From Corallococcus exiguus (GTDB lineage: Bacteria > Myxococcota > Myxococcia > Myxococcales > Myxococcaceae), in NCBI RefSeq assembly GCF_017302975.1, contig NZ_JAFIMT010000003.1: a stretch of DNA of 64,000 bases; one strand, written 5' to 3'. Below, one piece after another: positions 13,692-38,541 of this stretch. A program made the translations under genes and the position numbers. The notes under the pieces were generated by a model. It had not been told where the DNA came from. It ran no database searches and saw nothing but the letters and a program-made list of their open reading frames with translations. The number at the start of each line of letters is the position of its first letter. Positions within the stretch are counted from its first letter, which is position 1.

Positions 13692-14318
13692 GTGCTCCCC
13701 ATGAATCCTGAGAAGCTTGTCTTCGCCCAGACCGTGGACGCGCTCTTCGTCCGCGCGCTGGAGAACCGCCTGACGCCAGCGTGCCGCGAGCACCTGAAGC
13801 GGGCGGGGCTGGACCTCGACAAAAAGCTGGAGCGCTCCTATTCGCTGGAGCAGTGGCGGGAATTCCTGCGAATCGCGGCGGGCCACGTCTATGGCGGCGT
13901 GCCGGCGGAGGCCGCGTACTACTCCCTGGGCGAGCGCTTCATGGACGCCTACTTCGGCACCTTCTTTGGCCGAGCGCTCCTGGGCGTGGGCCGGCTGGCC
14001 GGTCCCCGGCGGATGCTGCTGCGGGCGGACCTGGGCTTTCGCGCCGGCAACAACTTCAGTGAAATCAAAATCGTGGAGCGCAGCGCGACATCGCTGGAGC
14101 TCTGGATGAACGACGTGCTGGCGGATCAGCCGACGTTCGCGGCGGGGCTGCTCGCGCGCGCGGTGGCGCTGTGCGGGGGCTGGCGGGTGGTGGCGCTGCC
14201 GGAGGAGTTCGACGGCACGGCGGCGACGTTCCACCTGCGCTGGAGCGAGGCCTCCGCGGAAGGGGCGCTCAGCGCCACTGAGGATGGGTCCGGAGGCGAC
14301 GCTCGACCTCAGGCGTGA
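13692..14318 (+). CDS. DUF2378 (TIGR02265, Myxococcus paralogous family) protein
   Basis: About 200 aa with the pattern LVFAQTVDALF...LDLDKKLERSYSLEQWREFLRIAA typical of this myxobacteria-restricted family. Confidence 0.6.
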   Translation: MLPMNPEKLVFAQTVDALFVRALENRLTPACREHLKRAGLDLDKKLERSYSLEQWREFLRIAAGHVYGGVPAEAAYYSLGERFMDAYFGTFFGRALLGVGRLAGPRRMLLRADLGFRAGNNFSEIKIVERSATSLELWMNDVLADQPTFAAGLLARAVALCGGWRVVALPEEFDGTAATFHLRWSEASAEGALSATEDGSGGDARPQA

Positions 14319-15168: not shown

Positions 15169-16164
15169 ATGACGACTCCAGGGCAGGAACATCGGGGCGC
15201 GCTTCACGGGGAGGACGTCCGGCACGGGGAGGCTCCGTTCGAGGGCGGCCAGGTGAGGCTGTCGCTGCGCGTGGAGGCAGGAACGCGCACGGTCTTGGCG
15301 GCCGCGTGGGAGGCGTCGGTGGAAGCCTCGGTGGACGCGGGGCATCCGCTGGCGGCGTGCCTGGAGTCGCTGTGCCAGAACGCGGTGGGCATGGCGGTGG
15401 ACGTGTTCCTGCGCTTCGACGACTTCCACTTGCGCGCGGGGTGTCCGGACGGGCTGGAGGCGACGGAGGAGGCGGGGCTGGCGGTGCGGGTGTTCCGGCT
15501 GGCCTTCAGCCAGTTCCACCCTCGGGCCACGGGGCCCGCGTATCTGTCGAGCGGACTGGTGCTGGCGAAGCTGCCCCGGGGCGCGAGTCCGGAGTGGGAC
15601 GAGCCGGGGTTCTACTTCGCGCACTACTACCGCGAAGAGCTGTGGGCCGCGGCGGTGGAGGAGGCGCGCCGGGGCGGCGTGCTGGGACCGCGAGCGGCGT
15701 GTGCGTACATCGATGCGCTGCTGGCGAAGGCGGATGACACGGTGGAGCTGGACTGGCCCGTGGAGCAGGGCACGGCGACCTGGGACTGGTTGACGCGCGT
15801 GTGCCTGCCGGCGGTGACGGGGGGCGCGGAGCGGACAAGGCGGTTGCTGGAAGGGGGGTACGGGGGCGCGAGCGGCACGGGGAGCTTCCCCTTCGGGCAC
15901 CTGGACGGAGGGTTTTGGCATCCGCCGGTGGGGCTGCCGGAGCCCGAGGACGTGGGGCACGCGGAGTTCATCCTCGGGGATTTGGAGCACCTGTTGCCGG
16001 AGCTGCCGAAGGACGGCGTGTTGCTGGCCGCGCCCCGGTGGATGGCGGTGGGACAGACACAGGACTCCCCTGCCCTGCGCCGGGCGGACATCTCAAGTGA
16101 GGAGGCCGGGGGCTTCGGCCTGTTCAACGCGGCGGCGCACGACGTGGGTGAAGACGATGATTGA
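15169..16164 (+). CDS. Hypothetical protein (acidic, Trp-rich)
   Basis: Clean ORF from the ATG at 15169 with coding-like composition. The 5' part of the 480-aa track ORF was rejected. Confidence 0.5.
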   Translation: MTTPGQEHRGALHGEDVRHGEAPFEGGQVRLSLRVEAGTRTVLAAAWEASVEASVDAGHPLAACLESLCQNAVGMAVDVFLRFDDFHLRAGCPDGLEATEEAGLAVRVFRLAFSQFHPRATGPAYLSSGLVLAKLPRGASPEWDEPGFYFAHYYREELWAAAVEEARRGGVLGPRAACAYIDALLAKADDTVELDWPVEQGTATWDWLTRVCLPAVTGGAERTRRLLEGGYGGASGTGSFPFGHLDGGFWHPPVGLPEPEDVGHAEFILGDLEHLLPELPKDGVLLAAPRWMAVGQTQDSPALRRADISSEEAGGFGLFNAAAHDVGEDDD

Positions 16165-16897
16165 TGGGCGCCTCCTGGGTGGGCTGGTGGCTCTGATCTG
16201 TCTGTCGTGCGCTTCGGGTCCAAGGCAGTACGCGCAGACCACGGACTCCGCGACCAATGGATGTCTGCGCAATCCCACCTGCTACACGCAGCCGGGGGAT
16301 GAGGCGTTCCTCCCGTGGGTGGACAAGGCCGTGAGGGCAGCGGCTTCCGCGGGAGCCACGATGAAGCTCCTGGAGGCGGCGGATGTGGCCCGCATCGAGC
16401 ACCTGTTGGTGGAGTGCGCCAAGGAAGCGGACTTCATCGTCAATGAGCGTGAGTACGGCGAGGGGAAGTATCCGGACGACAAGGAGTGCTTGCGCGTGGT
16501 TGGCCAGGACAAGGACGGCAAACCCATTTGGCGGCAAGCAGAGCTGGGGAAGTTGAAACACGCGGTTGCCTTCGCATGCGTTCAGCGAGAAGTCCGTCGA
16601 CTCTTTCCCGATAACGTCTCAATCGAGCCTCGCTACGGGACCTCCCCTACGTCAGGTGGCCCCACAATGACGAACATATGGAAGGGCTCGAAGAAGCCCG
16701 ACATCGTCCTTCATGCCACTGGCCAGCCACTCCAGATCCAATGCATTTTCGACCTCAAGTTCCCGTGCACGCTGAAAAGCAAGGGCGACCCCCTCTCCAA
16801 CGACGGAACCCGTGAACAAATGTCCCGCTACGCGGAGCTGAGAGGAAAGTGCAAGCCCGCGATCATCACGCCCCAGTTTGGAGTCTTGCGTGAATAA
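16157..16897 (+). CDS. Cys-rich lipoprotein of unknown function (candidate exported toxin-like protein)
   Basis: MIDGRLLGGLVALICLSCASG carries a lipobox, and the mature protein has at least 10 Cys. GC is locally lower, and the gene is translationally coupled to the next gene (overlap GTGAATAA). Confidence 0.6.
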   Translation: MIDGRLLGGLVALICLSCASGPRQYAQTTDSATNGCLRNPTCYTQPGDEAFLPWVDKAVRAAASAGATMKLLEAADVARIEHLLVECAKEADFIVNEREYGEGKYPDDKECLRVVGQDKDGKPIWRQAELGKLKHAVAFACVQREVRRLFPDNVSIEPRYGTSPTSGGPTMTNIWKGSKKPDIVLHATGQPLQIQCIFDLKFPCTLKSKGDPLSNDGTREQMSRYAELRGKCKPAIITPQFGVLRE

Positions 16898-17894
16898 GTA
16901 TCCGCTCCTTCAACACTTCTCCACGACGCTCCCCCGGGTCCAACTGGTCCTGCGCATCGTGTTCTATCTGCCGCATGACCACCGAGTGTTGGCCCCCGTC
17001 CTACGACAGGTCCTCAACACCTATCTTGGATTCATTGCGGCCAGTGGTGGGGCACTGACCTCTGGCTATGATCCCGACATCAGTGAGGATTCCTTCCCAC
17101 TCACTCCTGACACCTGGGAAGAGGTCCACACGGAGTTGGAGAAGGCTCGCTTTGGGCCTCTGGAGGACATGGACCAGGACTCCTTCTGGTTTTGGACCCT
17201 GACCAAGAGGAACTACGACACATGGGTTCTTCTCAAGGGAGGACATTCGGAGCCAGATGGCTACGAATTCAGTTTCGAGTCTCGGATCCCATGGAGAGAA
17301 CCCACTTCCGAGCACAGCGTTCTGAGCGTGAAGCTCCCAATAAGCTTCCTGGAGACGCAGGGGCCCGAGAAGGCCTTTGCACTGGCACGGTCCCTGGCGG
17401 AGCTTCTTCCGTTCTCCACGGGCCATGCCGGGCTGTCGCTCTCATTCACGCGCGGGAGGTCGAAGCTCCTTCCCCTTCTCAAGGAGCAGCTGTCCAGGCA
17501 TCCCGGCTGGCACGTTCCGCCTCCGCTGACGTGGGGCTTGGGACCGTGGATCGACGACGTGCACTGGCTGAACTTCCTGGGCCCTCCCCTGCTCGAAACC
17601 GTTGGCGGCATCCAGGCGCTTCGCTCGCACCTGAGCCATCCGGAGACCACCGTCCAGGAGCTCACCGGAGGCCGTGCCCTGATCAGCCTGGGCGCCGAGC
17701 CGCTCGCGGGGGACACAAAACGGGGTGAGACACTGCCGGCGTATCGCGAACTGGCCCGGTTCCTGGAGCCCTGGCTCCTGCCCTTCCCCCACGTCAACAC
17801 CTGGGACGGCTACACCGACGACGAGGCCCGCCTCTGGTGGCGCCGCTTCCTGGAGGGCCCTCCCGAAAAGATATCCGTTCCACGGGATGGGTAA
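16890..17894 (+). CDS. Hypothetical cytoplasmic protein coupled to upstream lipoprotein (candidate immunity-like partner)
   Basis: A GTG start overlaps the upstream stop by 8 nt. There is no signal peptide, and it shares the lower-GC segment. Confidence 0.55.
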   Translation: MNKYPLLQHFSTTLPRVQLVLRIVFYLPHDHRVLAPVLRQVLNTYLGFIAASGGALTSGYDPDISEDSFPLTPDTWEEVHTELEKARFGPLEDMDQDSFWFWTLTKRNYDTWVLLKGGHSEPDGYEFSFESRIPWREPTSEHSVLSVKLPISFLETQGPEKAFALARSLAELLPFSTGHAGLSLSFTRGRSKLLPLLKEQLSRHPGWHVPPPLTWGLGPWIDDVHWLNFLGPPLLETVGGIQALRSHLSHPETTVQELTGGRALISLGAEPLAGDTKRGETLPAYRELARFLEPWLLPFPHVNTWDGYTDDEARLWWRRFLEGPPEKISVPRDG

Positions 17895-18023
17895 CCGCGC
17901 CGGATTTTTTCACGCATTGCCCCAGCACCCGGCGCACTGATAATCCGCAACCCGGAGTGTTCACGTCGAGCGGCAGGCCGACGGTCGTGGTCGCGCCAGC
18001 CCTCGCGGATCGGGGTTTCATCG

Positions 18024-21000
18024 ATGCGGTCACAACGCGCTGTCTGGAGCAGGCTCCTGTTGTTCGCCGCGAGCCTGGGCCTTCTTTCCTGCGGCGGGAA
18101 CGAGCGCCCGGCGGCATCCGAGGGCATCCGCACCACGCACGCCCGTCTCGCGACGGCACCGGCCTGGTACGCCACCCCGTCCATGGCGACGGCACGCGGG
18201 CAACACGCGGCCGTCCTGCTCCCCAACGGCAAGCTGCTCGTCGTCAACGGCGTCAACTCGTCCGGATTCGTGGGCACGGCGGAGACCTACGATCCCGCCA
18301 CCAGCACCTGGGCCTCCGCGGGCCCCTCCAGCCTCACGGGCAACGTCACCCTGGCCGTGCTCCTGCCCACGGGCCGGGTGCTGGTACTGACCGATGGCTC
18401 GCAGGGGGGACGCCTCTATGATCCCGTCGCCAACACCTGGGCCGCCACGGGCAACATGTCCACGACCCGCGCCCTCCCCACGGCCACGCTGCTGGCCACG
18501 GGACAGGTCCTCATCGCGGGCGGCACCGGCGGTGGCGGCGTCCGGCTCACGACCGCGGAGATCTACGACCCCGCGACCAACACCTTCACCACCACGGGCG
18601 CCATGACCGTGGGCCGCGGCGCGCACATGTCGACGCGGCTGCGTGACGGGCGGGTGCTCGCGGTGAGCGGCTTCAACGGAAGCGGCGAGGTGCCCGGCGC
18701 CGACCTCTACGATCCGGCCAGCGGCACCTGGTCCGCCGCCGCGCCCCCGCTGGTGGCCCGCCACTACTCCACCAGCACCCTGCTTCCCGACGGCCGCGTG
18801 CTCGTCGCGGGTGGATTCACCGCGAGCGGTGTCACGGCCCAGTCGGAGCTCTACGACCCGGCCGCCAACACCTGGACCGCGACCGGCAGCCTCGCGTTCC
18901 CGCGCGCCAGCCACATGGCCACGTTGCTGCCCGATGGCCGCATCCTCGTCACCGGCGGTTCCAACACTTCCAGGGCGGCGCAGATCGAATCGGAGCTCTA
19001 CGACCCCGCCACCGGCACCTGGACCGCCGCGGGCACGATGAACATCGCCCGCGAGAACCACACCGCGACGCTGCTGCCCACGGGCAAGGTGTTCGTCACG
19101 GGCGGGTTCGCCCAGAACCCCAGCCTGACCTTCTTCGCGCAGACGGAGGTCTACGACCCCGCCGCGAGCCAGTGGTCCCCGGCCGGCGCCATGGGCACGC
19201 CCCGGACGGATCCCATGGTGGCTCTGCTGCCTGGTGGCCAGGTGCTCGTCGCGGGAGGCCGTGGTGTCAGTTCCTCGGCGGCGGTGGAGGTGTATGACCG
19301 CGCGAGCAACAGCTGGAGCGCCGCGCCCGCGCTCGCCGTGCCCCGCGAGCGCGCGACCGCGACCGTCCTGCGCTCCGGCCAGGTGCTGGTCGCGGGTGGA
19401 CGTAACGGGACCACCTCGACGGCTTCCGCCGAACGCTACGATTCCACCACCGGGACCTGGCTGCCCACCGCCGACCTCCTCGGCACGCGGCACCTCCACT
19501 CCGCCACGCTCCTGCCGGATGGCCGGGTGTTCGTGTCCGGCGGACAGCGCAACGCCGCGGTGCTCGCCTCCGCGGAGCTCTACTCGGCCGACACCAACAC
19601 CTGGAGCGCGGCGGCGCCCCCCACCGTCGCGCGCGCGAGCCACGGCGCGGTGCTGCTCCATGACGGCCGGGTGCTCGTCGCCGGCGGCCATGACAACAGC
19701 GGCGCGGAGACGGCCTCGGCGGAGCTGTACGACCCCGCCACGAACACCTGGTCCCCCGCGGCGAACCTCGACAACGTCCGGGACGAGCTGACGCTGACGC
19801 TGCTGCCCTCGGGCCAGGTGTTGGCGGCGGGAGGAAAGGTGGGCCTCACGTACCTCACGTCCGCGGAGCTGTACGACCCCGCCACGAACACCTGGACCCC
19901 GGTGGGCCCGCTCGCGCAGTCGCGCATGCACCACACCGCCACGTTGCTGCCCTCCGGCAAGGTCTTGATCGCGGGCGGCCTGACCGACCTGGGCGCCTAC
20001 GTCGACACCGCGGAGATGTTCGATCCCCAGCTGCGCATCTTCACGACCGTCGCGGACCCCACCACGCGCGGAGGGCTGATCTCCACCGCCCTGCCTTCAG
20101 GCGAGGCCCTCCTCGTGGGAGGCGTGGGCCCGCCCGACGCGGAGCTGTTCAACGAGAACGGCGCCCAGCCCGCATGGCGGCCCACGGTGACGAATCCGGT
20201 GACCCTCGTCGCGGCCTGCCCCACCGTCCTGGAGGGCATGCTGTTCCGGGGCATCTCCGGAGGCAGCAGCGGCAGCTACTCGGACTCCTCCACCGACTTC
20301 CCCCTGGTGCGGTTCCGCGCCGCGGAGGGCGGCCGTCTCTGGACGCTCCCCTCCAGCAACACCTCGGCCACGCGCGCGACGGTGACCGTCCCCGCGGACG
20401 TGCCGGTGGGCACCTACGGGCTGACTGTCTTCGCCAACGCCATCTCCGGCGGGCGGATGGTGACCGTCGTCGCCAACCGTCCTCCGACGGCGGCGGACCA
20501 GACGGTCGTCGTTCCGAAGGACACGGTCACGGCGATCGCCCTGAGCGGCACGGATCCGGACCCCGGCCAGGTGTTGAGCTGGACCGCGGTCACCCAGCCG
20601 CAGCACGGCACGCTCGGCACCAGCGCGCAGGGGACGCTCGAGTACACCCCCAACCCCGGCTTCGTGGGCACGGACAGCTTCACCTACCGGGTCCGTGACT
20701 GCGCCGACGACAGCAACATCGCGACCGTGACCCTCAACGTGACCGAGGACGCGGTGCCCACCACCCTCACCTGCCCCGCGAACCTCACCGTGGAGGCGAC
20801 GGATCCGGACGGCGCGCTCGTGACCTACGACCCTGCCGTGCTGGAGCCGGCGGGAGGGCTCCCGGTGAGCTACTCGCAGCCGTCAGGCTCGCTGTTCCCG
20901 ATTGGCACCACGACGGTCACCGCGACCTCCACCGGCCTCACCTGTACGTTCCAGGTGACGGTGCAGGACACCACGGCGCCCACCCTCACCTGCCCCGCGG

Positions 21001-21323
21001 ACATCACCGTGGCGCCGAACACGCAGGTGACGTTCACGCCCACGGCCACGGACGCGGTGACGGCCAATCCGACCGTGACGTCTTCGCCCGCGTCGGGCAG
21101 TGAGTTCCCCGCGGGAGCCACGCAGGTCACCGTCACCGCCACGGATGCGGCGGGCAACACCGCGCAGTGCACGTTCCAGGTCCGGGTCCAGGCGCAGGTC
21201 GTGGAGATTGCCGGCGGTGGCTGTAACAGCACCGGTGGCACCACGTCCGCGCTGGCGCTCCTCGCCGCCCTGGCGGCCTGGGGCTCGTCGCGTCGCCGTC
21301 AGAACCCGGCCCGGGGGAACTGA
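18024..21323 (+). CDS. Kelch-repeat (multi-blade beta-propeller) lipoprotein with two HYR-like domains and MYXO-CTERM anchor
   Basis: Lipobox LLSCGG. There are at least 13 repeats of the ...YDPA(T/S)(N/G)TW(S/T)..A..M... Kelch motif, then PTLTCPA...TCTFQV HYR-like modules. The C-terminal GGGCNSTGG + hydrophobic stretch + RRRQ is a MYXO-CTERM sorting signal. Confidence 0.85.
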   Translation: MRSQRAVWSRLLLFAASLGLLSCGGNERPAASEGIRTTHARLATAPAWYATPSMATARGQHAAVLLPNGKLLVVNGVNSSGFVGTAETYDPATSTWASAGPSSLTGNVTLAVLLPTGRVLVLTDGSQGGRLYDPVANTWAATGNMSTTRALPTATLLATGQVLIAGGTGGGGVRLTTAEIYDPATNTFTTTGAMTVGRGAHMSTRLRDGRVLAVSGFNGSGEVPGADLYDPASGTWSAAAPPLVARHYSTSTLLPDGRVLVAGGFTASGVTAQSELYDPAANTWTATGSLAFPRASHMATLLPDGRILVTGGSNTSRAAQIESELYDPATGTWTAAGTMNIARENHTATLLPTGKVFVTGGFAQNPSLTFFAQTEVYDPAASQWSPAGAMGTPRTDPMVALLPGGQVLVAGGRGVSSSAAVEVYDRASNSWSAAPALAVPRERATATVLRSGQVLVAGGRNGTTSTASAERYDSTTGTWLPTADLLGTRHLHSATLLPDGRVFVSGGQRNAAVLASAELYSADTNTWSAAAPPTVARASHGAVLLHDGRVLVAGGHDNSGAETASAELYDPATNTWSPAANLDNVRDELTLTLLPSGQVLAAGGKVGLTYLTSAELYDPATNTWTPVGPLAQSRMHHTATLLPSGKVLIAGGLTDLGAYVDTAEMFDPQLRIFTTVADPTTRGGLISTALPSGEALLVGGVGPPDAELFNENGAQPAWRPTVTNPVTLVAACPTVLEGMLFRGISGGSSGSYSDSSTDFPLVRFRAAEGGRLWTLPSSNTSATRATVTVPADVPVGTYGLTVFANAISGGRMVTVVANRPPTAADQTVVVPKDTVTAIALSGTDPDPGQVLSWTAVTQPQHGTLGTSAQGTLEYTPNPGFVGTDSFTYRVRDCADDSNIATVTLNVTEDAVPTTLTCPANLTVEATDPDGALVTYDPAVLEPAGGLPVSYSQPSGSLFPIGTTTVTATSTGLTCTFQVTVQDTTAPTLTCPADITVAPNTQVTFTPTATDAVTANPTVTSSPASGSEFPAGATQVTVTATDAAGNTAQCTFQVRVQAQVVEIAGGGCNSTGGTTSALALLAALAAWGSSRRRQNPARGN

Positions 21324-27635: not shown

Positions 27636-29039
<1,404 letters not shown>

Positions 29040-29088
29040 TTACCGCGCGTCTTGGGTCGCCGCGCCATTTCCGTTACAAGCCGCCGCC

Positions 29089-30687
29089 ATGTTCAACGTC
29101 ATCAACGTCTCCAAGGCCTATGGGCCCAAGAAGCTGTTCGAGGAGGTCAACGTCGCCTTCTCGCCGGGCCGCCGCTACGGCCTGACCGGTCCGAACGGGG
29201 CCGGCAAGTCCACGTTCATGAAGATCCTCGCGGGAGACGAGGAGCAGGACATGGGCGACATCATCCGCCCGCGGAAGCTGGGCATCCTGCGCCAGGACCA
29301 CTTCCGCTACGAGAACGATCGAGTCATCGACGTGGTGCTGATGGGCAACCGCCACCTGTGGGCGGCGATGGACGAGAAGAACAAGCTCCTGGCCAAGTCC
29401 GACATCACCGAGGAGGACGGCAACCGGCTGGGTGAGCTGGAAGGCGTCATCGCGGAAGAGGACGGCTACTCGGCGGAGAGCGACGCGGCCACGCTGCTGG
29501 CGGGCCTTGGCATCGAGGAGTCCTTCCACGAAGAGCCCATGCGCCAGCTGACGGGCGGCCTGAAGCTGCGAGTGCTGCTCGCGCAGGCGCTGTTCGGCAA
29601 GCCGGAAGGGCTGCTGCTCGACGAGCCCACGAACAACCTGGATATCGACTCCATCCGCTGGCTGGAGAACTTCCTGCATGTGTACGAGGGCGTGCTGATC
29701 ACCATCAGCCACGACCGGCACTTCCTGAACTCGATTTGCACGCATATCGCGGACATCGATTACGAGACGATCATCCAGTACACGGGTGGTTACGACGACA
29801 TGGTCCGGCAGAAGTCGCAGCTGCGGACCCGGGTCGAGTCCGAGACGGCGGAGAAGAAGAAGAAGATCGCCCAGCTGCAGGACTTCGTGGCGCGCTTCCA
29901 CGCCGGTACGCGAGCGTCGCAGGTGCAGAGCCGCATCAAGCAGATCGACAAGCTGAAGACGGAGGACCTGAAGCGCTCGAACATCGCGCGGCCGTTCATC
30001 CGGTTCGACCAGAAGGTGGTCAGCGGTCGTCAGACGCTGATGTTCGAGGGCCTGAAGAAGTCCTTCGACGGGGTGCCGGTCATCAAGCCGTTCACGGGCC
30101 TGGTCTGCAAGGGCGAGCGTATCTGCGTGATTGGCCGCAACGCGGTGGGTAAGTCCACGCTGGTGAAGATGCTGGCCAACCAGCTGGAGCCGGACGCGGG
30201 GACCATCACCTGGGGCCACCAGGCGACGGTGGGCTACCTGCCGCAGGACCACCACGGCGTCATCCACAAGGGCACGACGTGCTTCGGCTACCTCCGGGAG
30301 ATCAGCGAGAAGCTGACGAACGAAGAGATTTCGGGCGTGTTGGGCCGGATGCTCTTCTCGGGTGAAGAGCGGATGAAGGCGACGGACACGCTCTCCGGTG
30401 GTGAGACGGTGCGCGTGCTGTTGTCCAAGCTGATGATCACGCAGGACAACGTGCTGATTCTGGACGAGCCGACGAACCACCTGGACCTGGAGTCCATCGC
30501 GGCGCTGGCGGAAGGCCTCTCGAAGTTCGACGGCACCGTCATCTGCGTGACGCACGACCAGGAGCTCATCTCCGAGGTCGCGACCCGCATCTGGAGCCTG
30601 GAGGCGGGCAAGGACGTGCTCGACTTCAACGGGCCCTACTCGGAGTTCATGGAGAAGCACGCGGACGCGGCGCTGAAGCGCCGGTAG
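29089..30687 (+). CDS. ABC-F family ATPase (two ABC domains, no TMD)
   Basis: It has two Walker A motifs (GPNGAGKST; GRNAVGKST), two LSGG signature motifs and an inter-domain linker. The start is the ATG at MFNVIN. Confidence 0.9.
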   Translation: MFNVINVSKAYGPKKLFEEVNVAFSPGRRYGLTGPNGAGKSTFMKILAGDEEQDMGDIIRPRKLGILRQDHFRYENDRVIDVVLMGNRHLWAAMDEKNKLLAKSDITEEDGNRLGELEGVIAEEDGYSAESDAATLLAGLGIEESFHEEPMRQLTGGLKLRVLLAQALFGKPEGLLLDEPTNNLDIDSIRWLENFLHVYEGVLITISHDRHFLNSICTHIADIDYETIIQYTGGYDDMVRQKSQLRTRVESETAEKKKKIAQLQDFVARFHAGTRASQVQSRIKQIDKLKTEDLKRSNIARPFIRFDQKVVSGRQTLMFEGLKKSFDGVPVIKPFTGLVCKGERICVIGRNAVGKSTLVKMLANQLEPDAGTITWGHQATVGYLPQDHHGVIHKGTTCFGYLREISEKLTNEEISGVLGRMLFSGEERMKATDTLSGGETVRVLLSKLMITQDNVLILDEPTNHLDLESIAALAEGLSKFDGTVICVTHDQELISEVATRIWSLEAGKDVLDFNGPYSEFMEKHADAALKRR

Positions 30688-31116
30688 TCTTTCGGCACTC
30701 CAGGCAGTGCCTACGCCGCCCGTTTCCGGTGCTCCGGAAGCGAGGCGGCGTTTTCGTGCGCGTGTCAATTCTTCCTGTACGCTGTCACCCAGCTCAACGT
30801 ACGAAGGCACTTGGAGGAGAGAGTTAAAGAACAGGTTGTCCTCACCACCACAGCGAGGCTGCGCGAGGTGTCGCTGGTAAATGCAGGTGAAGGAGCGCTG
30901 GTGGGCGTACAGGCGGCGACAGCCGAAGGGGCCGGTGCTCTGCGAGGTGGTTCATGCGCAAAGGCTTGAGGCCTGTGCCGCACTGCGCGAGAGCGGGCTC
31001 CGTGGCTTCGTAACCACCGGGTGTGAGACTCAAATCTTTCCTGTAGGGGCGGGCTTGTAGATCTGCAACGCTTCCGCAACCCGCCCTCTCCTGGGACGAG
31101 GTGAAGGAGCCAAGCA

Positions 31117-32052
31117 ATGCCTGACGGAAGACTGAAGCGCCTCGCTGACATGAAGCCGCTGGCGGATCTGTCTAGCCCCCTGACTCCGCCAAGTCTGGAG
31201 GCTGAGAGGAACCACGAACCGGGGTACTTCAAGGGACGCCGAGGGTTCAACCCGAACTTCATCCCTGAATTCCAGGTCGAACTCCCAACGCTATCCAAGT
31301 CGCTCAGCGACGACGCGGCGCCGCTAGTCACTGACGCGAACAAGCACGTCCTCGACTACGAGAACTTCTCGCTCGTGATGTCCAAATCGCGGCGGCTGGC
31401 CATCTACACCGCGTGCAACATCGAAGGCGAGCAGAGTAAGCGCGACAAGGTGGCGCGCCAGGGCAAGGACGAGTGGTTCTATGACCTACGCATCAGCCCT
31501 CATCACCAGATTGGCGAAGACCTCTACCGAGACAACGAACTCGACCGCGGTCACCTCGTCCGCCGCGAGGACCCCGTCTGGGGAGACAAGGCCGTCCACG
31601 CCAACGACGACACTTTTCACTTCACCAACTGCTCGCCGCAGCACTCGGGCTTCAACCAGAAGACTTGGCTTGGGCTGGAGAACTACATACTCCAGAACGC
31701 CCGACTGCACGAACTGAAGGCCACGGTCTTCACGGGCCCCGTCTTCACCCCCAATGACCCACTGTATCGTGGCGTGCGGATTCCCCGCTCGTACTGGAAG
31801 GTTGTCTCCGTCTTCAGCGAGGAGCAACGTTCGGCAACCGCCTATGAAATCAAGCAGGACCACCTCCTGGAAGGGCTTGAGTTCCTCTACGGCAAGTACA
31901 AGACGCACCAAGTGAGCATCCACAAGGTCGAGCGTATGACGGGGCTCAAGTTCGGCCCACTCTCCACCTACGACGGCTTTTCGAACGAGGAGGCCACCGT
32001 CGGCTCCGAGGTCAGCATGCCCTTGTCGGACTGGCGCGCGATCCGGATTTAA
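31117..32052 (+). CDS. Non-specific DNA/RNA endonuclease (Endonuclease_NS / Serratia-EndoG-like, beta-beta-alpha-Me, DRGH motif), no signal peptide
   Basis: LDRGHLVRRED is the catalytic DRGH motif, and the FTNCSPQ and Asn metal site lie downstream. There is a strong RBS (gaaggag) 6 nt before the ATG. GC is lower than in the flanks. Confidence 0.85.
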   Translation: MPDGRLKRLADMKPLADLSSPLTPPSLEAERNHEPGYFKGRRGFNPNFIPEFQVELPTLSKSLSDDAAPLVTDANKHVLDYENFSLVMSKSRRLAIYTACNIEGEQSKRDKVARQGKDEWFYDLRISPHHQIGEDLYRDNELDRGHLVRREDPVWGDKAVHANDDTFHFTNCSPQHSGFNQKTWLGLENYILQNARLHELKATVFTGPVFTPNDPLYRGVRIPRSYWKVVSVFSEEQRSATAYEIKQDHLLEGLEFLYGKYKTHQVSIHKVERMTGLKFGPLSTYDGFSNEEATVGSEVSMPLSDWRAIRI

Positions 32053-35000
32053 GCCCTCGCGGGGAATCCCCTGATCGCCACCAGGGAGTGGAGGAACTCG
32101 TCCCAGTCTTGGAGAGACTCCGCGAACCTCTGGGCTGCGGAGTCCTCCGTTGCATAAGTGGAGACATGAACCAACTCGAGAAGTTGCCCACACTCGTCCG
32201 CGTGATTGACGAGCTCGCGTGCTTGGTCCTTCAGGCGCATGCGGAAGAACGTTTTCATCCTATCGGCAGGAAGAAACTTCTCGGCGAGTGTGGGCCATCT
32301 CTTTCCCCCTCCCTTAAGGAGCGCGAAACGCGCGGGCACCCTCCACTCCACATGCCGCGCCACCAGCAGCCTTTTCACGACCGTGACGGTGGCCGCTGAC
32401 TCCTCCATCACGAGTGCGAATAACCACTCGTGGAGGGCGTTCACCAGTTCCGGGGGCACCTGATCGAACGTGACGAGGTCTGCCTTGGACGATGTGTTGA
32501 TGCTGAATGGCGTCCTGACGAGCTTCAGCAACTGGTGAATCCGGTCCGCCCACCCCCTAGCGCCAAAGTCCAGGAGCGTCTCGATCGTGAATTGTTCGCC
32601 AGCATTTAACGACGTCAGCGGCGCTGCCCGGAAGTACTCGGCAAGCAACGAACGAACGTCACCGGGAGCAAAGAGAACGAGTCGACGGAGCAGCCCAGGG
32701 GCCTGACGCGACACCATCCGCCGAAGCTGATTGGCGACATGCAATGCGCTGTCCGCCAATGAGGGACTACTCAAGCCAGCCCGCCGTAACGCGCCCACTT
32801 GGCCCGTGAGGCATTCGAGCAGCGCCATCTGGGTTTCCCGCTCGTGCGCCAGACTGGCTCCTTCATCAAAGAGTTTCTCGGACCTCCGATCCCCCATCTT
32901 GAACAGCAACTCCGCATGGGCCCGGATTAGTTGAAGGCGCTCGAACCCGCTCGAATGTGAGTCTGAATGACCGCGCTCGTACGCCTCCAACGCCATGTCG
33001 AATTCCGCCATGTCGGAGAGTGCCGTACCCAGCAGCCTGCTCCATTCAGCCCCTTGACCGGATGGAGCCCGACTTGTGAGCAACTCGCGCACGAACTCGG
33101 GCTTGCCACGGCGCATGTCCTGCTCGGCCCGCTGCTTAGCGTACTGAGTCCAAACGCTGGAACTCAGCATCTCGCGCTCCTCCGGGTCCAGCACTTGGCC
33201 GAGCTTGGCCTTAAGAAAGGCGCGCGCCTGTGGCTGGAGGTCGGGGACCGCAGTCTTAAGGAGAGGCTCTGCATCCTCCGACCAACGCAGCTCAGCACGG
33301 TCGATCTTATCCAAGAGCAGATGATGGTAGAGTTCTTCAGCATGGTTGGCTGGACCTACGCGCTCAGCGTAGTAGGCGGCCGCGCGCTCATTGATCTGCC
33401 TGAACTTTCCGGGGTCGGAACGCTCCAAGTCGTCGCGGATCAACCCCAGCATAAAGGTCCGGATATCGCGACGATGCACGAGTACGTCGCCTCTGCGCGT
33501 CACCAGCGCGACTTCCTTTGCCATCTTCTCGAAGAGGGCGCGTGCTTTGACCTCGTCCACGTCTTTCAAGCCGCAAGGCTCCGCAAGCACCTTGGAGATC
33601 AGCTCGGGCGTAAGCTGCCGGAGGATTAACCCCGGATGTGCCAGTCGGGCGACCTCTTTGTCCACGTGAGAGAGAGTCCGGGTGAAGAGCTGCACCGCGA
33701 CATTCTCAGAGTCGTATTGTCCGAGCACGCGGGCGAGCCCCCCCCGCCTCACGCCGACGAGTTCCCCCATCACCAGCTCCGACTCGGAAACTCGTGTGAG
33801 TTCCTTGCGGACGAGGCCCACTGCCAGCTTGAGAGAGAGTGGGCTCGTCCCCACGTGAGACACTATCTCGTCGAGCATCTCTCGTGGCAGCGCCAGCCTA
33901 TTCTTCAGGAACTGGACAGCGGACCGCCGGTCCAATCCCTTGAGCCAAAACCCCTCGGCACTAGGCTCCGCAAGAGGAGCCCGACCGGAGATGACAACCC
34001 GCAGTTCCCCCCAGTCTCCGTTGTCGCTAAGGGTCTGCAACATCGAGAGAACCTCCGCCACGTCTCCATCCCCCGCGCGCTGCACCTCCTCGAACGTATC
34101 GAGAACAAGGAGGAGCGGTCTTCCGTCCCGAGTTAAGGGACGTACGGCGTTGCGCAACTGGCGCGCACCCTCATGCACAAGACGTGGGTCTCGCACCACC
34201 TCCTCCACATCAATGCTGGCGAACTCGGAGGAGCGGGCGCTCCGGTGTCGCTCGCGAAGCAGCCTCTCGAAGCGTTCGCGCTGCCGCCCCCCAAAGCTCT
34301 TGAGTTCCGTCCCGAGATGCGGGAACTGAAACGCAAGCTGTTGCGCCATCTCCTGCAAGAGGGATATGGGCTGGCGTGGCAGAAGGGTCGCCCGATCAAA
34401 GTCAAGGTAGACGAACGGAAACCGGCGCTCCGGATCCTGACGCGCATGTTCGACGAGAAACTGCGCCATCAATGTTGATTTGCCGATGCCCCCTGCCCCA
34501 TAGACAACAAAAGGTTGATAGTGAGAGTCGGCCCACCTCCGAACGGTCCGCACTAAGGATTTCAGCTCACGGCGTCCCCAGCCAGCCCAGGACTCAGGAG
34601 GCTGCACACCAACGTAGTCACTAAGCTTTCTCAGCTCTGTCGTGCGGCCAGCGAAACCCTCTCGAAGCAGCTCATCGAAGGGCTTGAGGATCTGCGCGAA
34701 CCCGAGCTGCTGGCGGACCCGCTCCGGGTTCGGCATCTCGACCGGTGTGCCCTCCAACCATTCACAAATCACTGCAGTCTTCGCAAGTTCGTCGACACTC
34801 TGCTGTTGGATCGGTGGTGCGGAACCATTGAGATATTGAGACAGTGCCTCCGACAGCTCGTCATCCGAGGCCGAGCTGCCCATGCGGCCCACCTCCAAGC
34901 GGATCTCCTTGGCTGACAGGGACCGCAGGACCTCCTTTCGAGGCGCTTCCTTGAGCATCCATCGCCGGTACCCCCGACGCGTGGTCACCGTGCTCTCCCT

Positions 35001-35234
35001 TAGGAGGCGGTCTAGCACCCCTCGTCGATGTTCCATCGATAGCTGCGGGGGCAAGAGCTGCGTTGGGTCGAAAGTACCGACCAAGGCGGCGCGCTTGCGC
35101 ACGGCACCATAGAGGTCGTCCACGACTCCCGCCTCCGGCAGGGCGAACGACTTTTCCAGTGTGCCGCGTATCGCCTCTCGCAGTTCCTCCGGAATCAGAG
35201 ACAGCGCTTCGTCAATGGGGCTCTTGCCTGCCAT
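32049..35234 (-). CDS. STAND/NB-ARC-like P-loop NTPase with approximately 230-aa N-terminal helical domain and approximately 550-aa C-terminal helical (TPR-like) repeat sensor region
   Basis: Walker A is VYGAGGIGKSTL and Walker B is RPLLLVLDTFEEV, followed by a GxP-like segment. There is a long Leu/Ala/Arg-rich helical C-terminus. A GAGGA RBS sits 6 nt upstream of the ATG, and the gene is the last of a three-gene operon. Confidence 0.8.
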   Translation of the reverse strand: MAGKSPIDEALSLIPEELREAIRGTLEKSFALPEAGVVDDLYGAVRKRAALVGTFDPTQLLPPQLSMEHRRGVLDRLLRESTVTTRRGYRRWMLKEAPRKEVLRSLSAKEIRLEVGRMGSSASDDELSEALSQYLNGSAPPIQQQSVDELAKTAVICEWLEGTPVEMPNPERVRQQLGFAQILKPFDELLREGFAGRTTELRKLSDYVGVQPPESWAGWGRRELKSLVRTVRRWADSHYQPFVVYGAGGIGKSTLMAQFLVEHARQDPERRFPFVYLDFDRATLLPRQPISLLQEMAQQLAFQFPHLGTELKSFGGRQRERFERLLRERHRSARSSEFASIDVEEVVRDPRLVHEGARQLRNAVRPLTRDGRPLLLVLDTFEEVQRAGDGDVAEVLSMLQTLSDNGDWGELRVVISGRAPLAEPSAEGFWLKGLDRRSAVQFLKNRLALPREMLDEIVSHVGTSPLSLKLAVGLVRKELTRVSESELVMGELVGVRRGGLARVLGQYDSENVAVQLFTRTLSHVDKEVARLAHPGLILRQLTPELISKVLAEPCGLKDVDEVKARALFEKMAKEVALVTRRGDVLVHRRDIRTFMLGLIRDDLERSDPGKFRQINERAAAYYAERVGPANHAEELYHHLLLDKIDRAELRWSEDAEPLLKTAVPDLQPQARAFLKAKLGQVLDPEEREMLSSSVWTQYAKQRAEQDMRRGKPEFVRELLTSRAPSGQGAEWSRLLGTALSDMAEFDMALEAYERGHSDSHSSGFERLQLIRAHAELLFKMGDRRSEKLFDEGASLAHERETQMALLECLTGQVGALRRAGLSSPSLADSALHVANQLRRMVSRQAPGLLRRLVLFAPGDVRSLLAEYFRAAPLTSLNAGEQFTIETLLDFGARGWADRIHQLLKLVRTPFSINTSSKADLVTFDQVPPELVNALHEWLFALVMEESAATVTVVKRLLVARHVEWRVPARFALLKGGGKRWPTLAEKFLPADRMKTFFRMRLKDQARELVNHADECGQLLELVHVSTYATEDSAAQRFAESLQDWDEFLHSLVAIRGFPARA

Positions 35235-35241
35235 GGCGTCC

Positions 35242-37092
35242 TCAGCTCAAACCCGTGGCGAACGCGGCGACTCCTCTCGCCAGCGCCTTGGAGAACGGCT
35301 CATCCTGGAGCTTGTTTGCACTCGCCATCATCACGAGGCCAGGCGCTATCTGGCTCAGCAGCGTGCGCGGAGTCTGCTTGCCGTGATGTTCCACATAACG
35401 CGCAAGGTACTCCGCCACCTCGTCGGAGCCGGGCGCCCGGGTGCGATCCACTTCCACGAGCGAGGCGAGCACCGTCAAGAGACTCGGTGGCCCGCCGATG
35501 AGGAGCCAGCGAAGTGCGGCGAGATGTGGCACCTCTCGCAATAACCGCACCAGGATGTCGAGCGTCTCGTCGTTCACGAACGTCTTCCGGTTGAAGTTAT
35601 CCAGCGCAATCCAGATCGAGAAGGATCCATTCACCTCCGCCGGGTAGCGGAGTGCGAATGCCGCAGTGAACCAGTCGAATAGGAGGGTGCTCGCCCAGCG
35701 CGCAGACTGACGGTCCACGGGTCGAGCTGGCGCGCCCTCCACCGGCAGTTTCAGGTCGCGTGCCAAGTCCATCAGGAACGCGTCAGGTGCCTTGTCCTGA
35801 ATCGCCGACATATCGTAGTCCATGACCACGTCCGGGCGCCCGGAGAACAGCCCTTTCATGATGTCGATGGAGAACGAGCACCCCGAGTCGTCATCACCTT
35901 CCACCACCAGGATGCGCTTTGGTGAGTGCGCCGCTCCCATTGTCCAGAGGATCTGCTGGAACTCAATGCGACCCAGAACTGGTGCCCCGGACGGCAATTG
36001 CCAGAGCGGCACGAATCCAGGAAGGTCCTGAGACTCAAACCCACCCTTCGACTGGATGTGGTCGCGGATCAACCAGATGGGTACCCCCTGGTTTAACTGC
36101 TGGTTCTGCACTTCCGCGTGGTGGAGCGCGACAAGCCCGAACCGGATATCGAAGCATGGTGCGCCGGAAGCCCCCTTCATCGTGTTCACGGCGTAGCGCA
36201 ACCGCGCTTGGCGGGTGTCCATGGCCTTGAACGGTCCAAAGGCAATGTGGAGCGCATGACCCGCCGGGTGCTGCCCGATGACCAGCGGCTGGTCCGGTTC
36301 GAGCGTCATGGTCGTGGAGGACCCGGCAGGGAACTCCACCCAACCGCGCTCCTGCCCCCCACCCGTGCCGACGGGCGCCCTTCCCACGGGTTTGGCGAGG
36401 TTGAGCACCGCGTAGTCCAGCAGCGTCAGGCAGTCCGGTGGATTGGGCAGTTCCAGGACAATGCCGTCTTCCGGGTGTCCCGGGCTCATCGGTCCCAGCC
36501 AGTCGTCCCGCAGCGCCACGGCTGTTCCCGGGAGCAGCTCAGTCCCATCCGCGAGAGCGACGTAGTCGAAACGGCATCGGATCTTCTCTCCGACGCTCGG
36601 CAGGGGCGCCCCCTCCGCGTCGAAACACGTCGCGATGACGTGATAGGCTGTGAGCACGCGATCCGGCGCGATGAGCACACCGGTTCCCATCGCATTCGCT
36701 TCCACCTCAATCCGGCAGATCTGCTGCCCGCGCTTCTGCATCTGGGCCGAGAACACAGTCCAGGGCGCCATGGGTCCGTTGTAAGTGATGAGGCTTTGTA
36801 GGGGAGAGGCGTCGGCAGCCTGAGTCCCCAGCCGCGACAGGAATTGCATTAGCCTGGGCGTCTTAGGAGCATCTCGCAGCAGATAGGCGATTAGCTTAGC
36901 AGTGGCCCCGTTGAGCGTCACCCAATCAAGCAGCACCCCCGGCCCGGATTCCTCGGACGCGCCGGGCGCGATGACGTCCAGGCTCTGCTTGAACCACATC
37001 TCGATGAGAGCGCGCAGCTTTGGGCCTTCCAATTCTGCGGACAGGATGGAGGCCAGCTCGGTACGTTCCTGAGGGGTGAGCGCCAGTTGCAT
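35242..37092 (-). CDS. Three-module protein: N-terminal small helical domain (EAD-like) + trypsin-like serine peptidase + C-terminal domain of unknown function
   Basis: His motif is GTGVLIAPDRVLTAYHV, Asp is in DYAVLNL, and Ser motif NTMKGASGAPCF is GDSGGP-like. The roughly 100-aa N-terminal helical module is MQLALTPQERTELASIL...LRALIEMWFKQ. The C-terminal approximately 280 aa have no recognisable motif. The gene lies 9 nt after the upstream protease gene. Confidence 0.75.
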   Translation of the reverse strand: MQLALTPQERTELASILSAELEGPKLRALIEMWFKQSLDVIAPGASEESGPGVLLDWVTLNGATAKLIAYLLRDAPKTPRLMQFLSRLGTQAADASPLQSLITYNGPMAPWTVFSAQMQKRGQQICRIEVEANAMGTGVLIAPDRVLTAYHVIATCFDAEGAPLPSVGEKIRCRFDYVALADGTELLPGTAVALRDDWLGPMSPGHPEDGIVLELPNPPDCLTLLDYAVLNLAKPVGRAPVGTGGGQERGWVEFPAGSSTTMTLEPDQPLVIGQHPAGHALHIAFGPFKAMDTRQARLRYAVNTMKGASGAPCFDIRFGLVALHHAEVQNQQLNQGVPIWLIRDHIQSKGGFESQDLPGFVPLWQLPSGAPVLGRIEFQQILWTMGAAHSPKRILVVEGDDDSGCSFSIDIMKGLFSGRPDVVMDYDMSAIQDKAPDAFLMDLARDLKLPVEGAPARPVDRQSARWASTLLFDWFTAAFALRYPAEVNGSFSIWIALDNFNRKTFVNDETLDILVRLLREVPHLAALRWLLIGGPPSLLTVLASLVEVDRTRAPGSDEVAEYLARYVEHHGKQTPRTLLSQIAPGLVMMASANKLQDEPFSKALARGVAAFATGLS

Positions 37093-37101
37093 GGGTAATC
37101 G

Positions 37102-38274
37102 TCAAGGTACGAAGTGCAGGCCGAATTCCTTGAACCTCGCCTCAGCAATCATCTTCGCCATGAGCACAGCCTCATTTTGGCTGAGTTGGGTTCCCCGAAA
37201 GTGAAGCCCCACTACCTTATTCGTGGCTAGCCGCACCACGCACGAGCCAGATGAGCCCTTGAGCGTACTGCAATCGTGTTGCAGGGAGCAGGTGGACGCA
37301 TCCAGCGCTGTGATGACGCCTGGCGCTAGGCGCTTGCGTCCGTAGATTCCCCCAAAAATCTGTTCCAGGACCTCGGACTCGTGCGTGTCGTCGAAGCCTG
37401 GATAGCCAATCGTGTACACGTGGTCGTCGCTTGTGCGAACCTCGGCGTCATTCGAGGCGATGGGGAGCGGGGCCGGAAGCGTCTCACCGGCCGCGTTCCG
37501 GGTCTCGACCTCCAGCAGGGCGAGGTCCGGATGACCCGCCGCGCCATCCTCCACGTGGAGGATTCGCTTCACCTCGAACTCCAGAGTCTTCGCATTCTGC
37601 TCCTCGACAAGGAAATCGACCCATACGCGCGTTCCCTCGTGCAAATTCCAGCCATCCCCAGACTTCTTCCCAAGATGCGGGTCCACCACATGGCGGTTCG
37701 TCACGAGGACCCCGGAACCTGCGACCCAGGCCGTTCCAATGCCCCTGCCATTTCCTCCCTTCGATCCGAAGTACACCCGGCCCACGCTCTGGAGGGTGCG
37801 CTTGATCTTATTGCGGTTCAGGTCGAGCGCGAGGTGCTCCCAGCTCTTGTCCAGCGGCCCATTGAAGTCTCCCTGCTGGATGAGCATTGAAGGCCGGCCC
37901 GTCAGGCGGACGATGGCTTCCAGTGAGGCGAGCTGTGGCAGGGTGAGAGCTGCCCGCGTCCCATCCTTTGAAATCTCCGCGAGCGCGGTCGCCGCAGTCC
38001 GAACGAGCGAGACTCCCTTCGCTGTGAGTTCCTTCTCGGTCTTGCCCCGAACCCCGTCCACGCATACCAAGTCCAACAGGAGCGCCGTCTTCTGCGGGTC
38101 GTTTTTAACAGCCTCCGCGAGTTCTTCAGCACGCTTAGAGGACAGCGCCCCCTGGGCCACGGTCTCCTCAACGGGAGCGCCAGCGGCTTCCAGCGACTCC
38201 ACTGTTCGACCGCCCAAAACGTACATGGCGCGCGCTATGAACTGACTTGGCTCAAACAGGCCATTGTTTCCCAC
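37102..38274 (-). CDS. Trypsin-like serine peptidase with approximately 170-aa N-terminal helical domain
   Basis: His motif is GTAWVAGSGVLVTNRHVV, Asp is in HPDLALLEV, and the Ser motif is TLKGSSGSCVV. It is the first gene of the island operon. The listed start is a GTG at 38274, with an alternative ATG at 38226. Confidence 0.75.
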   Translation of the reverse strand: MGNNGLFEPSQFIARAMYVLGGRTVESLEAAGAPVEETVAQGALSSKRAEELAEAVKNDPQKTALLLDLVCVDGVRGKTEKELTAKGVSLVRTAATALAEISKDGTRAALTLPQLASLEAIVRLTGRPSMLIQQGDFNGPLDKSWEHLALDLNRNKIKRTLQSVGRVYFGSKGGNGRGIGTAWVAGSGVLVTNRHVVDPHLGKKSGDGWNLHEGTRVWVDFLVEEQNAKTLEFEVKRILHVEDGAAGHPDLALLEVETRNAAGETLPAPLPIASNDAEVRTSDDHVYTIGYPGFDDTHESEVLEQIFGGIYGRKRLAPGVITALDASTCSLQHDCSTLKGSSGSCVVRLATNKVVGLHFRGTQLSQNEAVLMAKMIAEARFKEFGLHFVP

Positions 38275-38307
38275 ACTGCCCCCGTTGCAAATGGCTCACA
38301 TGCGAAG

Positions 38308-38532
38308 ATGACATATCCGCGCCACATCCCAAAGCGCGGAGTCGTGGCGCCGATGGAGGACCGATTCTCTCTCTACCTCGTCGTCCAGAAACAGCCTGAT
38401 GGCTCCGTGACGGCATTCATCCGCCCCCAGAGCGGAACTTCTCACCCATTCGGCGCAAGGTGGCCACCGAGCTTAAACGACTGGTGGCTCAGAAGCCGGA
38501 TGCGACGGTGCGCGAGGCATCAGTGGGTATGA
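38308..38532 (+). pseudogene. Decayed internal fragment of a paralog of the serine-hydrolase gene at 41090-42841
   Basis: Nucleotides 38335-38440 align to 41466-41570 at roughly 85% identity (VAPMEDRFSLYLVVQKQPDGSVTAFIR versus VAPLEDRFSLYLVVQKQPDGSVKAFIR). No N- or C-terminal remainder of the gene is present. Confidence 0.65.
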
Positions 38533-38541
38533 TGCACGGCC

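Follow-up and report, generated by a model that had tools for sequence, protein, structure and literature searches.

The window analysed here is a 64,000-nucleotide stretch of Corallococcus exiguus DNA (contig NZ_JAFIMT010000003.1), and its subject is a pair of overlapping genes, ORF1 and ORF2, preceded by a third gene that we call up331. ORF1 encodes a lipoprotein with a predicted C-terminal nuclease domain, and ORF2 encodes a cytoplasmic protein of an immunity family. Taken together, our observations make it probable that the two act as toxin and immunity protein in a contact-dependent system like SitA/SitI. The features on which the discussion draws are the following (nt, nucleotides; aa, amino acids).

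ORF1, 16157-16897, plus strand: ATG at 16157, TAA at 16895-16897; a 246-aa lipoprotein and predicted PD-(D/E)xK nuclease toxin
Signal peptide II and lipobox, 16157-16210, plus strand: ORF1 aa 1-18, with Cys18 the lipidated residue, as read from the sequence
Post-lipobox region, 16211-16312, plus strand: ORF1 aa 19-52, a predicted disordered linker with a conserved motif
Nuclease domain (predicted), 16313-16894, plus strand: ORF1 aa 53-246
Putative catalytic codons in ORF1, plus strand: D182 at 16700-16702, D199 at 16751-16753 and K201 at 16757-16759; QxxxY is aa 221-225
ORF2, 16890-17894, plus strand: GTG start; a 334-aa cytoplasmic protein, assigned to the TsiV/DUF3396 immunity family
Hypervariable allele block, 16530-17900, plus strand: ORF1 aa ~125-246 and the whole of ORF2
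up331, about 15169-16164, plus strand: ~331 aa, start approximate; 5' of ORF1

ORF1 and ORF2 overlap by 8 nt (common string GTGAATAA), and a GGAG lies 7 nt 5' of the ORF2 GTG. This start is supported by the NCBI model of the C. exiguus protein P0117, which is 100% identical to ORF2 and likewise 334 aa long. An earlier note on this DNA had described a Cys-rich lipoprotein with a lipobox, translationally coupled to a 334-aa partner that begins with GTG and lacks a signal. The coordinates and the overlap are borne out exactly: ORF1 has precisely 10 Cys residues (15, 18, 36, 42, 87, 111, 141, 196, 204 and 232), ORF2 has 0, and inspection of ORF2 revealed no signal-peptide-like N-terminus. The earlier note had overlooked up331, whose 3' end reaches 8 nt into ORF1 (string ATGATTGA), so that in Corallococcus three overlapping genes make up one unit, with the pair at its distal end.

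ORF2 matches the Pfam family PF11876 (TsiV, 'Type VI immunity for VRR-NUC', previously DUF3396) with an E-value of 6.1e-40 and 137.7 bits against a cutoff of 25, and a family profile built from 27 relatives (alignment A2) matches the TsiV structure of PA0821 (PDB 7DRG) with an E-value of 1.4e-11. On the strength of these matches ORF2 is assigned to the characterised immunity family TsiV/DUF3396, and its identical counterpart P0117 already carries the name 'type VI immunity family protein'. TsiV has been shown experimentally to act as immunity protein to the PD-(D/E)xK nucleases TseV2/3, and the TsiV-TseV complex is 1:1, with TsiV occluding the DNA-binding face (PMC9635880). The terms 'lipoprotein' and 'Myxococc' are absent from that paper, and a literature search on DUF3396 returned nothing on myxobacteria.

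For ORF1, motifs and predicted fold support a PD-(D/E)xK-fold nuclease with invariant catalytic residues. The AlphaFold2 model has a predicted local distance difference test score (pLDDT) of 81, residues 53-246 are confident, and the best structural match is Cas4/RecB-like, not FAN1-like. Invariant positions in the family alignment are E81, K134, H135, P181-D182, H186, Q195, the run K201-F-P-C204 and Q221, and D199 and Y225 are nearly so, position 199 being D or E across the relatives; the layout is that of a PD...(D/E)xK triad followed by QxxxY. D182, D199, K201, H135, H186 and Q195 and the Cys residues 87, 111, 141 and 204 are present in all 85 non-redundant relatives, and Qxxx[YFH] is present in 84 of them. 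The presence of C196 and that of a C-terminal Cys go together without exception (43/43 versus 0/42), a pattern consistent with a disulfide bond made beyond the cytoplasm, in the periplasm. C87, C111, C141 and C204 (window 16415-16768) are also retained in PAAR-linked relatives without a signal peptide, which suggests that they form a metal site (Zn, or Fe-S as in Cas4) and not disulfides alone.

The N-terminus of ORF1 reads MIDGRLLGGLVALICLSC and continues with ASG. Its lipobox has a Cys at -3 (C-L-S-C), slightly off the strict consensus; the lipoboxes of its relatives are canonical (LAGC, LTAC or SLSC). LSC followed by ASGPRQ places Ala at +2 and Gln at +7, and the sorting rule for outer-membrane (OM) lipoproteins that has been applied to SitA1, with no Lys at +2 and no Ala at +7 (PMC5562445), predicts that ORF1 is sorted to the OM. 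Behind the lipobox lies the conserved motif YAQxxDSATxGC-LRNP-xC, with a Cys36/Cys42 loop (alignment A1). The CxRNPxC part is carried by 57 of 87 relatives, nearly all of which have a lipobox, with +2 mostly Ala and never Lys; C36 and C42 are both present in 62 of 85. Residues 16-50 have a pLDDT below 50 in the AlphaFold2 model, and only ~35-55 aa separate the anchor Cys18 from the nuclease domain. We regard aa 19-52 as a candidate for a minimal 'escort' or entry element.

A scan of one genome per species yielded 143 relatives of ORF1. In all 87 complete relatives a TsiV gene adjoins the ORF1 relative, downstream in 85 cases and upstream in 2. The reversed order is found in two Pyxidicoccus genomes (L014, 4947-6723, and L015), where the TsiV gene lies 5' of the toxin and none lies 3'. 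At loci where the start could be placed, the commonest overlaps are 8 nt (15 cases) and 4 nt (10 cases), and several loci hold tandem toxin-immunity arrays. Among the matches listed, the sources are all Corallococcus, Myxococcus, Pyxidicoccus, Archangium, Cystobacter or Vitiosangium, often with more than one member in a genome, and none of the named family members is from M. xanthus. When 1.84 billion representative proteins were searched exhaustively with a profile of the ORF1 family, only 245 matched. In Myxococcus and the other genera the pair occurs in unrelated contexts, without up331. Corallococcus itself has a paralogous lipoprotein-TsiV pair at another locus that is syntenic in its own right; this pair is ~35-41% identical to ORF1 and sometimes present as a tandem duplicate (L034, L040, L042-L044, L047-L050, L055, L058 and L080).

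The lower-GC patch to which the earlier note drew attention is confirmed: GC content is 62.4-63.1% at 16-18 kb versus 72-73% on either side, and GC at third codon positions is 0.76 in both ORF1 and ORF2 versus 0.84-0.96 in neighbouring genes. Reduced GC is a trait of the whole pair family, the pair lying below its flanks in 78 of 80 loci (medians 64.1% versus 70.3%).

At least 12 Corallococcus genomes share the site in synteny, in the order LysR, DUF2378, methyltransferase, up331, ORF1, ORF2, a Kelch/MYXO-CTERM protein and OmpA, and on this ground a recent horizontal insertion in Corallococcus is rejected. Relative to C. coralloides DSM 2259, the flanking proteins are 95-97% identical, ORF1 82% and ORF2 76%. 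For a conspecific comparison we set the window against one second C. exiguus strain, L084, with the following result (nucleotide identity, amino-acid identity and synonymous divergence, dS).

Flanks and 5' half of ORF1, up to about 16530: nucleotides 95-100%; ORF1 aa 1-124 95%, OmpA 98%; dS 0.06-0.18
3' half of ORF1, 16529-16922: nucleotides 42-73%; aa 125-246 53%; dS 1.46
ORF2: nucleotides 76-87%; amino acids 77%; dS 0.54
3' of ORF2, from 17923: nucleotides 100%

The C-terminal half of the toxin and ORF2 form a hypervariable mosaic block that is discordant with the species tree: the C-half in the window is 86% identical to that of C. aberystwythensis and 53% identical to the conspecific allele. 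Because divergence within the block is high, the flanks are near-identical and the toxin half is nearer to C. aberystwythensis, the block consists of old alleles swapped by recombination and does not reflect recent bursts of point mutation. The variable part remains within a single homologous toxin family. Some alleles are damaged. In C. carmarthensis (L028, 5974-7358) the toxin is truncated to aa 127-245 and the immunity gene is intact; of the decayed metagenomic alleles (P0356 and P0316), one is a toxin N-part fused to the TsiV C-terminus and another has an internal deletion. The general features of polymorphic toxins are all found here, namely a conserved N-part, a variable C-part, a co-varying immunity protein and a domain shared among different N-termini, including PAAR-like and DUF2380.

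These observations bear on two further points of the earlier note. Its suggestion of a horizontal origin stands only in part: the pair is an old resident of Corallococcus, found at the same site in at least 12 genomes, but the allele of toxin C-terminus and immunity gene moves, and in other genera the contexts are unrelated. It had also held that genes that are core, syntenic and host-like in all relatives would speak against a toxin and its immunity protein. Within the genus the site is indeed syntenic, but its sequence is far from host-like or conserved, and genus-level synteny for that reason does not refute such a reading. The toxin/immunity proposal itself is well supported by the TsiV family assignment, the PD-(D/E)xK motif, the unbroken adjacency of the two genes and the conspecific hypervariable block.

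A quieter role could be envisaged for the same two proteins, in which ORF1 is an envelope or vesicle nuclease for predation or for scavenging of extracellular DNA and ORF2 is a self-protection inhibitor only, with no part in kin discrimination. The lipoprotein signal carries the nuclease out of the cytoplasm, and the locus lies on the chromosome, keeps its synteny throughout the genus and has a dN/dS (nonsynonymous to synonymous divergence) below 1. Many hydrolases are secreted by myxobacteria, and there are known cases of an exported nuclease with an inhibitor in the cytoplasm (barnase/barstar, NucA/NuiA). Yet a housekeeping pair is not expected to show so sharp a block (dS 1.46 and 0.54 versus 0.06-0.18 in the flanks) or a toxin half nearer to another species' allele than to the conspecific one, and the tandem arrays, the truncated toxins beside intact immunity genes and the PAAR-like fusions described below are marks of conflict systems. 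We consider a housekeeping nuclease unlikely, and continue with ORF1 and ORF2 as toxin and immunity protein.

Among distant relatives the ORF1-type nuclease is found behind other N-termini. P0326 and P0343 carry a Tox-PAAR-like domain (PF13665) N-terminal to it, and P0326 lies in a cassette with the order DUF2169 - x - PAAR/nuclease - TsiV; on a Burkholderia plasmid the layout is similar, TsiV being preceded by DUF2169 and by a PAAR-like (DUF4150) gene. P0344 has an N-terminus without a known match and is again followed 3' by a TsiV gene. P0304, a 451-aa metagenomic protein, joins a DUF2380 region to a nuclease domain of the ORF1 type. DUF2380 has been equated with the SitA6 lipoprotein toxin family by the Wall laboratory (PMC12077181), and the fusion therefore links the nuclease to an established toxin family of outer-membrane exchange (OME). 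Judging by these architectures, the ORF1 nuclease module serves as a toxin in other settings too.

The database name of ORF2 implies that the pair belongs to a type VI secretion system (T6SS), with ORF1 an effector loaded on the spike and injected, and three observations favour this: T6SS effectors were the setting in which the ORF2 family was defined, the distant relatives of the ORF1 nuclease bear Tox-PAAR-like domains and adjoin DUF2169 genes, and myxobacterial kin discrimination does use T6SS (PMC10433427). However, a type II signal peptide with a lipobox directs ORF1, like almost all its relatives in myxobacteria, through Sec to the envelope. Such export would bypass T6SS loading, which occurs in the cytoplasm. 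Moreover, no PAAR-like or DUF2169 gene was found within 6 kb at ~80 loci or anywhere in the window, and VgrG, Hcp and PAAR families are missing from the precomputed Pfam annotation of L001, L004 and L005. A check of the ~80 loci for recurrent mobile elements, T6SS genes or genes like sitB brought up, as recurring neighbours, only kinases and response regulators of the ubiquitous kind. By its architecture ORF1 does not appear to be a T6SS effector, and we hold delivery by this route to be very improbable.

Instead, we infer SitA-like delivery by OME, because ORF1 has a lipobox and predicted OM sorting, its family is found in traAB-bearing genera, and no type VI genes lie nearby. OM lipoproteins, fluorescent reporters of this class among them, pass efficiently between cells by TraAB-dependent OME (PMC5562445), and in SitA proteins the lipobox is followed by a disordered stretch (PMC8546572). 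traAB has been reported for Corallococcus, Myxococcus, Archangium and Cystobacter (PMC6372800), and every genus with the ORF1 family either has traAB reported in the literature or is a close relative of one that has.

In C. coralloides DSM 2259, up331 is annotated as a gene of 331 aa, and its relatives amount to only 8 protein clusters, every one from Corallococcus or a Myxococcaceae metagenome-assembled genome; it is always at this locus and is 82-98% conserved within Corallococcus. It has no Pfam or NCBIfam match, its AlphaFold2 model is unusable (pLDDT 38), and no signal-peptide-like N-terminus was seen by inspection. We examined it as a SitB-like accessory gene and rejected that role, given the lack of a signal-peptide-like N-terminus and of a family match and its restriction to Corallococcus. 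up331 is probably the first gene of the transcription unit and is outside the conserved toxin-immunity module.

A true toxin-immunity pair might also travel by a contact-dependent or diffusible route other than TraAB, such as bacteriocin-like lipoprotein release or an undescribed system. The N-terminal region of ORF1 is much shorter than described SitA escort domains, up331 overlaps ORF1 in Corallococcus and could be an accessory factor, and myxobacteria probably hold undiscovered kin-discrimination systems (reviews; PMC10433427). Set against this are the efficient exchange of OM lipoproteins by OME, the restriction of the family to genera with reported traAB or closely related to one, and the absence of up331 from the loci of the pair in other genera, and we think a route of this sort quite unlikely. 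OME remains the delivery that we propose.

Several results weigh against a contact-dependent pair of the SitA/SitI kind. ORF1 matches no Pfam or NCBIfam model, VRR_NUC (PF08774) included: it has no Pfam match at E-values up to 1, 34 relatives have no credible one at E-values up to 10 (the sole weak match being BamHI, at 0.048), and neither ORF1 nor these relatives match an NCBIfam model or a PDB sequence. Foldseek comparison of ORF1 with the PDB was not significant. An hhalign comparison of the ORF1 family with the TsiV-linked Burkholderia PAAR effector (L088, on a plasmid) was not significant either, nor was one with an Agrobacterium plasmid protein encoded 5' of TsiV (L087). No recognisable mobile element carries the locus. 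Gene-wide dN/dS is 0.2-0.36, a crude measure that does not support positive selection. Cys richness alone is no evidence of periplasmic folding, since the four Cys residues 87, 111, 141 and 204 are kept in the signal-less PAAR relatives. Finally, with 35-55 aa between lipobox and nuclease, compared with SitA escort domains of ~375 aa, the route into the cytoplasm is not obvious. With these points in the balance, a SitA/SitI-like pair is still the reading that we consider probable.

Under that reading, the outer membranes of two Corallococcus cells with matching TraA receptors would fuse, and the ORF1 lipoprotein would pass over to the partner. The flexible post-lipobox segment may then be cut or otherwise used, releasing a domain of ~190 aa to the cytoplasm, where it would act as a metal-dependent PD-(D/E)xK DNase through D182, D199 and K201. 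ORF2, made from the overlapping downstream cistron, would bind the cognate nuclease and block its DNA-binding face, by analogy with TseV3-TsiV3. Non-clonal partners would lack the matching immunity, because strains hold old, divergent alleles of the toxin C-half and immunity gene that are exchanged by recombination at one chromosomal site.

Other genes of the window can be described briefly. Directly 3' of the pair, 18024-21323 (plus strand) encodes a Kelch-repeat/Big_9/HYR protein of 1099 aa, whose signal (LGLLSCGG) resembles that of a lipoprotein and which ends in a MYXO-CTERM sorting tail. It is fast-evolving, with 77-79% amino-acid identity between species versus 95-97% in the flanks and a dN/dS of 0.44-0.59, and between the two C. 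exiguus strains its identity falls internally from about 19223. On the other side of the variable locus, a TIGR02265/DUF2378 Myxococcus paralogous family gene (13692-14318, plus strand) is 95-97% conserved. A larger lower-GC patch, of 60-64% GC, extends over 29000-39000. It contains a secreted-type DNA/RNA non-specific endonuclease (31117-32052; PF01223, E-value 1e-49) and, on the minus strand, a pair of trypsin-like peptidases (35242-37092 and 37102-38274).

It is useful to compare the pair with the systems that it resembles. SitA/SitI are myxobacterial OME lipoprotein toxins with their immunity proteins and comprise six families (SitA1/2, 3, 4, 5, 6 and 7), with SitA escort domains of ~375 aa mediating entry. 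ORF1/ORF2 share with them the lipobox, predicted OM sorting, a disordered post-lipobox stretch, a predicted C-terminal nuclease, an overlapping immunity gene directly 3', several loci per genome, strain-specific alleles and named members that all come from traAB genera or close relatives. As in SitA4/6/7, there is one toxin family with varying alleles and no domain swapping. The differences are equally concrete. The gap between lipobox and nuclease is ~35-55 aa instead of an escort of ~375 aa, no sitB is present, the locus is not on an Mx-alpha-like element, and M. xanthus has no named member. ORF1 has no DUF2380 match and is for that reason not SitA6; 34 family members likewise lack DUF2380 or any other Pfam match. 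In addition, ORF1 is TseV-like PD-(D/E)xK and ORF2 is TsiV/DUF3396, and neither term occurs in the SitA literature searched.

SitA7 is described only as non-modular and a 'predicted DNase', and the literature searched gives no sequence, Pfam family or locus tag for it. That the ORF1 family is the published SitA7 is a possibility that we rate somewhat below even, the comparison being with the description of SitA7 only. We tentatively suggest, with a similar degree of reserve, that the family is instead a seventh, undescribed OME lipoprotein toxin family, in which a TseV-type nuclease is anchored through a motif of ~35 aa (YAQxxDSATxGCxRNPxC) without a large escort domain. If so, ORF1 would be the smallest known cargo to pass from the outer membrane to the cytoplasm and would offer a handle on how SitA proteins cross the inner membrane. 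It would also provide a natural case of one module switching between T6SS delivery, with a PAAR-like domain, and OME delivery, with a lipobox.

More generally, if our reading is correct, a compact toxin family (~230 aa when mature), not represented by any named member in M. xanthus, the model species, joins the kin-discrimination repertoire of myxobacteria, and its very short post-lipobox region would help to probe how OME toxins leave the OM and enter the cytoplasm. The two C. exiguus strains would amount to a natural experiment, with 95-100% identical flanks around an ancient block made up of the catalytic half of the toxin and its immunity gene, a contrast well suited to mapping the determinants of TsiV-nuclease specificity. 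A database label would also be corrected: ORF2 and its relatives in myxobacteria, which number in the hundreds, bear the name "type VI immunity" though their partners are lipoproteins, and ORF1 and its relatives are still named "hypothetical".

The second system of reference is TseV/TsiV, represented by TseV2/3-TsiV of Salmonella bongori and by PA0822/PA0821 (7DRG) of P. aeruginosa. ORF2 falls in the same Pfam family, and ORF1 appears to share the PD-(D/E)xK fold, the D...(D/E)xK triad and the order of toxin then immunity gene; the distant relatives of ORF1 combine PAAR-like domain, nuclease and TsiV. Unlike these proteins, ORF1 has a lipoprotein signal and not a PAAR-like domain, no T6SS genes are its neighbours, and PAAR-like domains occur only in distant metagenomic relatives. 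It also differs from TseV in having no VRR_NUC match, in carrying QxxxY and four invariant Cys residues, and in being Cas4/RecB-like and not FAN1-like. From Cas4/RecB nucleases it is set apart by the lack of HMMER-detectable sequence similarity, by its predicted export and by its pairing with an immunity protein. In Cas4, one N-terminal and three C-terminal Cys residues bind an Fe-S cluster, and their spacing appears to differ from that of C87/C111/C141/C204. By analogy with both systems, ORF1/ORF2 would work like SitA/SitI, with a toxin-immunity module of the TseV/TsiV type.

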